From the NCBI GenBank assembly GCA_964372865.1, contig CAYJRW010000003.1:1-33302 (forward strand): 33,302 nt of DNA. The letters run 5' to 3'. The DNA is from an uncultured Candidatus Saccharibacteria bacterium (GTDB lineage: Bacteria; Patescibacteriota; Minisyncoccia; Minisyncoccales; 2-12-FULL-40-12). Position numbers and translations under genes: made by a program. The stretch's first letter is position 1, and every line of letters begins with the position of its first letter. The notes under the pieces are model-generated. The model ran no database searches and had not been told where the DNA came from. It was given only the letters and a program-made list of their open reading frames with translations. Shown here in pieces: positions 9,969 through 15,123 of this stretch.

Positions 9969-10044
9969 GCCCTCATAGCTCAATTGGACAGAGCGCAGGC
10001 CTCCGGAGCTTGAAATATAGGTTCAAGTCCTATTGAGGGCACCA
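9969..10044 (+). tRNA. tRNA-Arg, anticodon CCG, with encoded CCA
   Basis: Hand-folded cloverleaf. Acceptor GCCCTCA/TGAGGGC; D stem GCTC/GAGC; anticodon stem CAGGC/GCTTG (one G-T); loop CTCCGGA; T arm ATAGG-TTCAAGT-CCTAT; discriminator A then CCA. Confidence 0.9.
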
Positions 10045-13516: not shown

Positions 13517-14227
13517 ATGCGGCGCTGGAAGAGAATCCTTCTTAAATTGTCGGGGGAAACCCTGAGCGGCGGAGGTTTTGGTTTGGATATGAAAGCAGCT
13601 CACTACATTGCCGCAGAGCTCAAAAGCGCACACAAGCTGGGAATCCAACTGGCTGTGGTTATTGGCGGAGGTAATTTCATAAGAGGGGAAAAACTTTCTC
13701 ATTTTGGCATTGAGCGCGCCACAGCCGATTATATGGGCATGCTCGGAACGGTTATTAACGGATTAGTTCTCCAGAGCGTTCTTGAAAACAAGTTTGCTTT
13801 GGAAACCCGCGTTATGACAGCTATTGAGATGCGAGAGGTGGCTGAACCCTTTATTAAGCGCAGAGCAGAAAGACATCTTGAAAAAGACAGAGTGGTAATT
13901 TTTGCAGGCGGGACTGGCAGCCCTTATTTTTCTACAGACACTGCAGCAGCTCTGCGCGCCTCTGAAATACAAGCTGAAGTCATTTTGAAGGCATCGAAGG
14001 TTAAAGGCGTGTATGATAAAGACCCAAAAACAAACAGAAACGCAAAATTTCTGCCATCACTCTCTCCGCTTGATATGGTGAAAAGAGGGCTCAAAGTAAT
14101 GGATTTGACAGCTGTAACACTTGCCATGGACAACAAAATTCCGGTGGTGGTATTTGACGTTTTTCAAAAAGGCAACCTGAAAAAATTGCTTTTGGGGAAG
14201 AAAATCGGAACAGAGATTAGCCCTTAG
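13517..14227 (+). CDS. pyrH: UMP kinase
   Basis: RILLKLSGE, VVIGGGN.IRG and FAGGTGSPYFSTDTAAALRA motifs. The track ORF starts at GTG 13403, but that extension is repeat copy D. ATG 13517 gives a typical 236-aa protein. Confidence 0.9.
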   Translation: MRRWKRILLKLSGETLSGGGFGLDMKAAHYIAAELKSAHKLGIQLAVVIGGGNFIRGEKLSHFGIERATADYMGMLGTVINGLVLQSVLENKFALETRVMTAIEMREVAEPFIKRRAERHLEKDRVVIFAGGTGSPYFSTDTAAALRASEIQAEVILKASKVKGVYDKDPKTNRNAKFLPSLSPLDMVKRGLKVMDLTAVTLAMDNKIPVVVFDVFQKGNLKKLLLGKKIGTEISP

Positions 14228-14254
14228 GGTGTGAATACTCTGTTGATAAAAAGG

Positions 14255-14282
14255 TTGACAAAGTTTGGTTGAAGAATAATGT
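14255..14282 (+). promoter_or_regulatory. Promoter for ncRNA candidate Y (TTGACA-16 nt-TAATGT)
   Basis: TTGACA at 14255-14260 and TAATGT at 14277-14282. Confidence 0.45.
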
Positions 14283-14289
14283 TAAAAAC

Positions 14290-14415
14290 GAGGGGGTGCG
14301 GGATTTATTCCTTAAGGACACGGGACTTGCGAAAGGAGGTTATAAAAGTAGCTGCCTGGATAGGTCCAATTCCAGGGAATTCCGGACTAACCGAATTCAG
14401 CGAGACCGCCCCCTC
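14290..14415 (+). ncRNA. Structured ncRNA candidate Y (~126 nt), class unknown
   Basis: 9-bp closing stem GAGGGGGTG (14290-14298) / CGCCCCCTC (14407-14415). Internal hairpins CCTGGA-10 nt-TCCAGG and GAATTC(C)GG-ACTAA-CCGAATTC, plus a CTT-GCGA-AAG tetraloop hairpin. No start codon after the internal AGGAGG. Confidence 0.5.
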
Positions 14416-14420
14416 CTTAA

Positions 14421-14451
14421 AGGCCGCTAGACAATATTTCTGGCGGTTTTT
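14421..14451 (+). terminator. Weak hairpin plus T5 after ncRNA candidate Y
   Basis: CCGC(T)AG..CTGGCGG followed by TTTTT. Confidence 0.4.
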
Positions 14452-14467
14452 AATTTGATTATTTTTT

Positions 14468-14476
14468 TGCTATACT
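14468..14476 (+). promoter_or_regulatory. Extended -10 box TGCTATACT, 6 nt upstream of ATG 14483
   Basis: TATACT at 14471-14476 with TG two positions upstream. No SD is present. Confidence 0.45.
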
Positions 14477-14482
14477 GAATAC

Positions 14483-15058
14483 ATGCAGTATAAAATCGTT
14501 ATTTCCGGGGCTGCTCAAACTGGCCATTGTTGCAAAGGAATTAAAGCATTGTCAAAAGAGGTTGGCAGAGAGGTGGCCCGCCAAAAGTGTATTTTGGTTA
14601 CAGGAGCTACAACAGGCATCCCTTATTTTGCAGCCCAGGGCTGCAAGGAAGAGTCAGGTTTTAACGTCGGTTTTTCTCCTGCCATTTCTGAAGCGGCTCA
14701 TTTAAAAACATACCGGCTACCTGTCAGCCCTTTTGATGTCATGATTTATACTGGAGCTGACTACGTTGGCAGAAATGTAATTATGACAAAATCAGCCGAC
14801 GGCATTATCATCATTTGCGGAAGAATGGGCACTTTGCATGAGTTTGTGACGGCTTTTGAAATTCAAAAACCAATAGCCGTCTTGGAAGACACAGGAGGCA
14901 CTGCCGACAAAATAAGACACATCGCCACAGGACCTTACAGAGGGATAAAAAAAATTATTTACGACAAAAACCCAAAACAGTTAGTTAAAAAGCTTATTAA
15001 TTTAATCAAAAAAGAAAAAAACAGAACTCCAAAGCCGCGCTGGCGAAAGCCTAGCTAG
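14483..15058 (+). CDS. LOG / TIGR00725-like Rossmann-fold nucleotide-binding protein
   Basis: VTGATTGIPYFAAQG and ICGRMGTLHEF resemble the GGGxG and PGGxGTxxE motifs of the LOG/SLOG fold. Confidence 0.55.
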   Translation: MQYKIVISGAAQTGHCCKGIKALSKEVGREVARQKCILVTGATTGIPYFAAQGCKEESGFNVGFSPAISEAAHLKTYRLPVSPFDVMIYTGADYVGRNVIMTKSADGIIIICGRMGTLHEFVTAFEIQKPIAVLEDTGGTADKIRHIATGPYRGIKKIIYDKNPKQLVKKLINLIKKEKNRTPKPRWRKPS

Positions 15059-15123
15059 GTGAGAGATAAATACGAAGTATTCAGCGATCATTAAAGGTCG
15101 AACTAAATAAAAAAATATAAAAT

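Follow-up and report, generated by a model that had tools for sequence, protein, structure and literature searches.

Natural RNAs that work as homo-oligomers are rare, and it is recent cryo-electron microscopy of OLE, ROOL, GOLLD, ARRPOF and HYER that has turned them into a separate field of study. OLE, ROOL and GOLLD are large orphan non-coding RNAs of bacteria (550-830 nt) that self-assemble via kissing loops and A-minor contacts, and the HYER1 and HYER5 ribozymes and the ARRPOF RNA are bacterial homodimers that form through palindromic or complementary intermolecular helices (PMC12990946). The RNA described here is encoded within a stretch of 33,302 nucleotides, referred to below as the window, which comprises positions 1 to 33,302 (forward strand) of contig CAYJRW010000003.1 in assembly GCA_964372865.1, a genome deposited as an uncultured Candidatus Saccharibacteria bacterium and placed by GTDB in the Patescibacteriota (Minisyncoccia; Minisyncoccales). 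An earlier note on this DNA, made from the sequence alone, had pointed to a free-standing structured RNA of unknown class at this locus. The reading preferred here, to which we give a probability of roughly 60%, is that the locus is an independent, strongly promoted and terminated small RNA gene of an undescribed family, the working unit of which would be a homodimer or higher assembly held together by palindromes.

As in HYER1, HYER5 and ARRPOF, a self-complementary segment embedded in a conserved fold is predicted to provide the intermolecular helix of a symmetric homodimer. The known RNAs measure 255-637 nt, in contrast to 128 nt for the RNA described here, which shows no sequence or model similarity to them (cmscan), is found in the ultra-small bacteria of the Candidate Phyla Radiation (CPR) only and carries two palindromes flanking one hairpin, from which its dimer is deduced. 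With OLE, ROOL and GOLLD it shares a stand-alone gene, a high degree of structure and a function that is unknown or poorly known, together with homo-oligomerization, which is predicted in its case; OLE is moreover encoded beside its protein partners, much as this RNA stands beside a gene for a small, putatively RNA-binding beta-barrel. It differs from the three in its length of ∼128 nt, its loop-free palindromes, its host range and the lack of homology. The raiA motif RNA and similar orphans are likewise conserved and pseudoknotted, possess their own promoter and terminator and lie beside a characteristic gene without apparent cis regulation, but the raiA RNA is distinct in fold, size and taxa and, to our knowledge, is not known to carry covarying palindromes. 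A viral parallel is found in the dimerization initiation site of HIV-1, a short, lineage-variable palindrome that stays self-complementary and mediates RNA homodimerization. In the HIV-1 genome this palindrome is located in a hairpin loop and acts through a kissing complex, whereas in the bacterial small RNA it is predicted to lie in a junction and to stack on a hairpin.

The gene unit occupies positions 14255-14453 on the + strand and consists of a TTGACA/TAATGT promoter, an RNA core closed by a G5/C5 stem and an intrinsic terminator. The promoter (14255-14282), of the sigma-70 type, has its -35 box TTGACA at 14255-14260 and its -10 box TAATGT at 14277-14282, separated by a 16-nt spacer as the earlier note had described, and 67 of 69 homologues likewise have a TTGACA-type -35 box with a TAnnnT-type -10 box ahead of the RNA. 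Transcription probably starts at about 14289-14290. The structured core, from the 5′ strand to the 3′ strand of helix P1, extends from 14290 to 14415 (covariance-model match 14289-14418; 111.5 bits with covariance model R1), and its single-sequence fold is more stable than that of shuffled sequences (minimum free energy -63.8 kcal/mol, z = -3.5). A terminator scan placed the intrinsic terminator at 14417-14453, as a hairpin with A-rich and U-rich flanks followed by a T-run; this feature had also been read correctly, and a U-run is present 15-60 nt downstream of the RNA in 69 of 70 homologues. The predicted transcript would measure ∼160 nt including the terminator, with a core of ∼128 nt.

Beyond the terminator, the downstream SLOG/LOG-like gene has an extended -10 box of its own (TGCTATACT, 14468-14476), with its ATG following 6 nt later at 14483, so that the region 14468-14485 forms the boundary of the RNA unit. 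An extended -10 box past the terminator was detected in 36 of 70 homologous loci, where the ATG lies 4-11 nt further on with a modal spacing of 6-7 nt in a scan that allowed up to 16 nt. The position of this box after the terminator suggests that the downstream gene is transcribed from its own promoter into a leaderless mRNA and that the RNA is a separate transcript. The close spacing also fits the view taken in the earlier note that leaderless mRNAs are common here. Together, the promoter, the terminator and the separate downstream box bear out its claim of a free-standing gene: judged from these signals, the RNA is an independent transcription unit rather than a leader, with some 15% left for a role in cis.

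Homologues were detected by BLASTN against 60 relatives in several families of the same order. A first covariance model was built from 13 homologues and a second from all 71 genome members; covariance-model searches found the RNA in 71 of 151 sampled genomes of the order, at one copy per genome, and the families listed in the output were either all-positive or all-negative, except for one (f2, 2 of 3 positive). In other orders of the class, the second model detected the RNA in 1 of ∼145 genomes. Metagenome members were chosen by a 24-base pattern whose constraints are confined to the 5′ 50 nt; the RNA is carried by at least 79 metagenome contigs and, among the matches listed, 79 of 80 loci were full-length (67-120 bits). 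The comparative search in related genomes that had been proposed in the earlier note has thus revealed a conserved and, as described below, covarying RNA. On the genomes sampled, the family is confined to a subset of a single CPR/Patescibacteria order, with genomes of the Parcubacteria type. A loose pattern scan of genome contigs gave mostly chance matches in GC-rich genomes, yet it also returned two true members in metagenome-assembled genomes labelled 'uncultured Candidatus Saccharibacteria'.

The secondary structure was derived from an alignment of the 71 genome members (A3), alongside a hold-out alignment of metagenome sequences (A4). Pairing in A3 extends to 92.5% of cells, with changes on both sides at 28 of 31 pairs and a covariation score of 0.549 vs 0.09-0.13 when the partners are slid; the corresponding values for A4 are 93.3% paired and 0.387 vs 0.06-0.10. 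Helix P1 (GAGGGGG, 14290-14296, with CCCCCUC, 14409-14415; all helices are on the + strand) comprises 7 bp with a nearly invariant G5/C5 core and is 100% paired in A3, predominantly as G-C with few G-U and A-U pairs. The 9-bp stem given for this position in the earlier note (GAGGGGGTG, 14290-14298, with CGCCCCCTC, 14407-14415) can form in the window, and its outer 7 bp are conserved but its two inner pairs are not. P1 is followed by the P2 hairpin (14300-14312), with 4 bp (GGGA/UCCU) and a variable loop, in which 4/4 pairs covary (for example A-U 44 and G-C 23 at one position), and by the junction J2/3 (UAAGGACA, 14313-14320), which holds the 5′ strand of a pseudoknot (GGAC, 14316-14319). The 5′ strands of P3 (14321-14333) and P3b (GGUU, 14338-14341) lie within 14321-14341, and their partners are found at 14395-14408 and 14389-14392 (AACC), respectively, with a purine internal loop between the two helices (GGA, 14335-14337, opposite GA, 14393-14394) that is conserved as GGA/RA. 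In A3, 17/18 pairs of P3 and P3b covary, and the GGUU/AACC pairs of P3b change on both sides, from G-C to A-U and from U-A to C-G.

The P4 hairpin (14356-14375) consists of a CUGG/CCAG stem and a 12-nt loop containing GUCC (14364-14367); across the family the stem has 4-5 bp and the loop 11-12 nt, 4/4 pairs covary, and the helix is 95% paired in A3 and 99.3% paired in the hold-out. Loop and junction are connected by a 4-bp pseudoknot, GGAC of J2/3 (14316-14319) with GUCC of P4 (14364-14367), which reads GGAC:GUCC in most members and has been compensated in at least four independent changes, to GGGC:GCCC (families f1 and f16), GGCC:GGCC (locus L023) and GGCA:UGCC (genome G056). The last of these belongs to a natural variant that lacks P2 (locus L233, G056:C13; ∼1450-1620 on the reverse-complemented locus, covariance-model match L233:1105-1216, minus strand). 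As it retains P1, the pseudoknot and both of the palindromes described below, P2 seems to be dispensable.

This comparative fold, comprising P1, P2, P3/P3b and P4 together with the pseudoknot and the palindromes, replaces the three simple hairpins with a GNRA cap that had been drawn from the single sequence, and the GCGA bases once assigned to the cap form part of the 5′ strand of P3 in the family. The observation that an internal AAAGGAGG (14331-14338) is not followed by a start codon is correct, but the alternative pairing of this segment with a 3′ CCTCC was not borne out as a conserved feature; the 3′ CCTCC is peculiar to the host genome, and its relatives end in CCCCCUCA. The Shine-Dalgarno-like AAGGAGG within 14321-14341 is divided equally between the internal loop and P3b, and since the P3b pairs covary, its Shine-Dalgarno look is constrained as structure. 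A role as an anti-Shine-Dalgarno sponge was considered and rejected, because the GGAGG lies partly in helix P3b with its covarying pairs.

Directly 5′ of P4 is an 8-nt, loop-free self-complementary segment, Pal1 (GUAGCUGC, 14348-14355, + strand). Self-complementarity extends over at least 6 nt in 70 of the 71 genome members and over exactly 8 nt in 58, with a mean length of 8.2 nt vs 4.4 ± 0.2 in shuffled regions, although the sequence itself varies, with 38 distinct 8-mers among the 71 members. The two adjacent central bases are always complementary (GC 24, UA 19, AU 17, CG 10), covariation is seen at all four symmetric pairs, and the fifth position outward is unpaired. The same holds for 63 hold-out metagenome sequences, for which the selection pattern did not touch the palindrome region: 59 of 63 reach at least 8 nt, the mean is 8.0 vs 4.6 ± 0.2, and new sequence types appear. 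G-U wobbles occur within the palindromes, which argues for pairing at the RNA level. A second self-complementary segment, Pal2 (GGAAUUCC, 14376-14383, + strand), is located directly 3′ of P4 and is less regular, with a mean of 6.8 nt vs 4.8 ± 0.2 in shuffled regions (6.3 vs 4.8 ± 0.2 in the hold-out), 38 of 71 members reaching at least 8 nt, and frequent G-U wobbles. Pal1 and Pal2 are not mutually complementary and hence do not represent a simple extension of P4.

Adjacent central bases cannot pair with each other in a hairpin, and the varying sequence is unlike that of a protein site; Pal1 is therefore predicted to form an 8-bp intermolecular duplex with Pal1 of a second copy of the RNA. Natural homo-oligomeric RNAs are characterized by conserved elements that pair only between molecules, and Pal1 has the properties of such an element. 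In the model proposed here, Pal1 (and Pal2) would pair with its counterpart in another copy to give a symmetric homodimer of ∼83 kDa or a higher assembly. If both palindromes engaged the same partner, two helices of ∼8 bp would link two P4 junctions in an arrangement resembling a double crossover. Pal1 would firmly supply 8 bp; for Pal2, a length of 8 nt is seen in the window and is the commonest among the members. If the two engaged different partners, chains or rings could result. It is a weaker inference that the RNA works in trans, providing a structured scaffold or binding protein, and is not a cis switch, and equally so that its best candidate partner, by neighbourhood, is the 89-aa barrel resembling domain 2 of EF-Tu that is encoded just downstream. 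The more specific proposal, a minimal self-assembling RNA that forms a dimer or larger closed assembly via two species-specific palindromic helices flanking a pseudoknotted hairpin and serves as a scaffold, possibly with the barrel, in bacteria devoid of the signal recognition particle (SRP), is more tentative, and we place it somewhat short of an even chance.

Several observations weigh against self-assembly and a shared role with the neighbouring genes. Covariation is the sole ground on which dimerization is proposed; RNAcofold does favour dimers (mean -10.5 kcal/mol), but this value, obtained without shuffled controls, is not discriminating, as long hairpins always behave in this way. Pal2 reaches 8 nt in only about half of the members, and its irregularity makes the two-helix geometry of the dimer speculative. 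Of the 151 genomes of the order, 129 encode the barrel protein, which is much more widespread than the RNA and thus neither depends on it nor has an exclusive link with it. Similarly, 19 of 20 RNA-negative loci retain the SLOG-barrel cluster without the RNA, which indicates that neither gene needs it. Finally, a constant place upstream of co-oriented genes would also be expected of a cis-regulator.

Two rival explanations take these points further, and both are considered unlikely. The RNA could be a conserved monomer in which the palindromes provide a site for a dimeric protein or form very short hairpins. Such an explanation draws on the fact that the dimer is so far predicted only, from sequence, and that Pal2 is irregular and in some members looks like a short ordinary hairpin; but a protein site would be expected to keep its sequence, whereas Pal1 occurs in 38 sequences and in further types from metagenomes with its four symmetric pairs kept, and pairing of the two adjacent central bases, which are always complementary, is sterically impossible inside a hairpin. 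The alternative that the RNA is a riboswitch or cis-acting leader, with the fold as aptamer and the hairpin as a regulated terminator for the SLOG/barrel/MgtC operon or for MgtE or permease genes, is given similarly low odds. The layout of promoter, structured domain, terminator and gene is the classical one, the junctions are highly conserved, a pseudoknot is present, and the downstream genes are always co-oriented and vary (SLOG/LOG, barrel, MgtC, MgtE, Trp/Tyr-type permease) in a manner typical of riboswitches. Against this stands the extended -10 box that follows the terminator 6-7 nt from the ATG in the window and 36 of 70 loci; a read-through transcript would lack a Shine-Dalgarno sequence, none being seen. 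No conserved alternative pairing between RNA and terminator was recognized: the duplex energy of the 3′ part of the RNA with the terminator is -9.0 vs -8.3 kcal/mol for shuffled sequences (p = 0.03), barely above chance and an effect far weaker than that for the 5′ control, and no clear antiterminator signal was recognized. The RNA is also present at one copy per genome only, relatives without it keep the operon and have a tRNA gene or just a short spacer at this point, and the palindromes would have no role in a cis-regulator.

The remaining rivals assign the locus to known types of gene. A cmscan of the window against all 4227 models of Rfam 15 returned one tRNA elsewhere in the window and no other match, and at E ≤ 10 the region 14150-14550 gave only chance-level matches to unrelated families, in keeping with the unknown class stated in the earlier note; there was no covariance-model match at the locus to OLE, ROOL, GOLLD, raiA (a model for which the library presumably includes) or ARRPOF. 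As 5S rRNA, RNase P RNA and tmRNA were each located elsewhere in the host genome (586 kb in 57 contigs, 92% complete), the RNA belongs neither to a known family nor to these housekeeping RNAs, and no description of it was found in a literature search, so the family is undescribed in Rfam and in the literature searched. A role as a small-scale 6S-like RNA, sequestering RNA polymerase, would suit a strong promoter, a stand-alone gene, the overall shape of a long irregular hairpin and a host genome in which no 6S RNA was detected, the RF00013 model giving no match at the locus or elsewhere in that genome. At 128 nt, however, the RNA is well under the ∼180 nt of 6S RNA, it has a three-way junction, pseudoknot and palindromes in place of the large central bubble, and it is missing from half the genomes of the order and from almost the entire class, which makes this reading very improbable. 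Even less credit is due to a small protein gene. Open reading frames of 53 and 59 aa (14269-14430 and 14279-14458, + strand, table 11) do overlap the RNA region, but a frame is open in at most 12 of 69 homologues; as no frame is kept open across the members, the locus is taken to encode an RNA and the coding candidate was rejected. The core lengths of 124-135 nt among members have no period of three, and the substitutions are compensatory base-pair changes.

Because SRP RNA is missing from the host genome, a divergent 4.5S RNA was also tested, in line with a likeness to which the earlier note had drawn attention. The RNA is similar in length to Escherichia coli 4.5S RNA (RF00169), has a comparable G/C-rich terminal helix (the G5/C5 stem) and contains a short string, CCUGG..AGGUCC, resembling CCAGGUCAGGUCC; moreover, canonical SRP RNA was not found in the host genome or in 60/61 relatives, and the small and large SRP RNA models (RF00169 and RF01854) gave no match anywhere in the host genome. 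In contrast to 4.5S RNA, however, the RNA fails the model score, with no SRP match at 14150-14550 even at E ≤ 10, and lacks the GNAR tetraloop, the symmetric loop and an Ffh partner; neither a GNAR-capped helix nor an AGCA strand occurs in the 71-member alignment. The look-alike CCUGG...CCAGG is the covarying stem of P4 with its pseudoknot loop, in which only GUCC is conserved and pairs with J2/3. The Ffh M domain (PF02978) was detected in 0 of 61 genomes, and in the host genome there was no match to PF00448 (the SRP54-type GTPase of Ffh and FtsY) or TIGR00959 (ffh equivalog) and no DTAGR motif of the SRP GTPases in any frame, a relaxed pattern matching once in an unrelated reading frame; N runs in the host assembly are 100-base scaffold gaps only. 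The SRP54 GTPase domain is likewise absent from 200 of 201 genomes of a phylum sample, with a true PF00448 match in the one other. Parcubacteria without ffh and ffs have already been reported (Nelson and Stegen, 2015; PMC4508563), and the present searches suggest that loss of the SRP pathway is much wider than Parcubacteria. The RNA is in addition missing from half of the order. The SRP/4.5S identity is already refuted by the lack of the protein partners and retains next to no probability. Taken as a whole, the earlier note is partly supported: its central claim stands, its internal fold was largely wrong and the 4.5S likeness is refuted.

The usual gene order around the RNA is a gene for an S-adenosylmethionine methyltransferase, often a tRNA gene, the RNA, the SLOG/LOG-like gene, the 89-aa beta-barrel gene and mgtC, with MgtE or a Trp/Tyr-type permease encoded downstream instead in some genomes. 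In the window, the upstream neighbour encodes a uridylate kinase of the amino-acid-kinase fold (PF00696) and the downstream neighbour a LOG-like protein (SLOG cluster-4/TIGR00725), confirming the kinase and LOG-like flanks named before. Of all neighbours, the barrel gene is the most regularly present: 56 of 71 genome loci and 38 of 39 metagenome loci have it downstream of the RNA, in the same orientation throughout. Its product resembles domain 2 of EF-Tu, EF-1alpha and SelB and also the barrel at the C terminus of the tRNA hydroxylase TrhP, and the EF-Tu-domain-2 likeness makes it a plausible RNA-binding partner of the small RNA. A conserved AAAGGTCG motif stands at 15093-15100 in the window, ∼30-40 nt ahead of the barrel start codon, and 41 of 56 homologous loci have it in the corresponding place; most of the others have near-variants. 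The motif falls on or close to the predicted 5′ end of the barrel mRNA, is similar to the AAGGNC core of J2/3 and may be a regulatory or processing signal.

An unfiltered covariance-model search of 20 syntenic RNA-negative loci detected one divergent copy only, the P2-less variant, and in the eight RNA-negative spacers that were read there was no look-alike RNA; three of these hold a tRNA gene and the others are short promoter-bearing spacers. In many genomes the -35 box of the RNA begins a few bases past the 3′ end of a tRNA gene, and in some RNA-negative relatives (loci L229, L231 and L232) a tRNA gene is directly upstream of the SLOG gene, an arrangement suggestive of insertion or deletion of the RNA gene between the two. 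The window itself has a tRNA with anticodon CCG (9969-10041) 4 kb upstream of the RNA, with other genes between. One genome (G030) contains an identical second copy of the RNA and the adjacent barrel gene, on contigs C10 and C12; this probably reflects duplication in the assembly rather than a genuine second copy. The terminator hairpins of most loci, including that at 14417-14453, have complementary CUAAA.../...UUUAG arms with an A-tract 5′ of the stem and a U-tract 3′ of it, the form expected of bidirectional terminators. At another locus (L008, G011:C59, 130-175) the P1 3′ strand and T-run (CCCCCTCTTTTTTAT) are tandemly duplicated with no separate terminator hairpin, and P1 itself may serve as the terminator. 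Elsewhere in the host genome, the match to RNase P RNA (G000:C16:7212-7704) spans 493 nt vs 367 positions in the model, which suggests that this RNA carries one or more large insertions.

If the self-assembly proposed here is correct, this would be by far the smallest homo-oligomeric natural RNA. Its evolutionary signature is unusually clean, in that a loop-free palindrome has changed its sequence in dozens of lineages and kept its symmetry, and its size of 128 nt suits both structure determination and compensatory-mutation tests. The genes that firmly accompany it, for a SLOG enzyme, for a very small barrel like that of translation factors and for MgtC, offer concrete functional candidates. 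Few other conserved non-coding RNAs are specific to CPR/Patescibacteria, bacteria in which RNA biology is almost unexplored.

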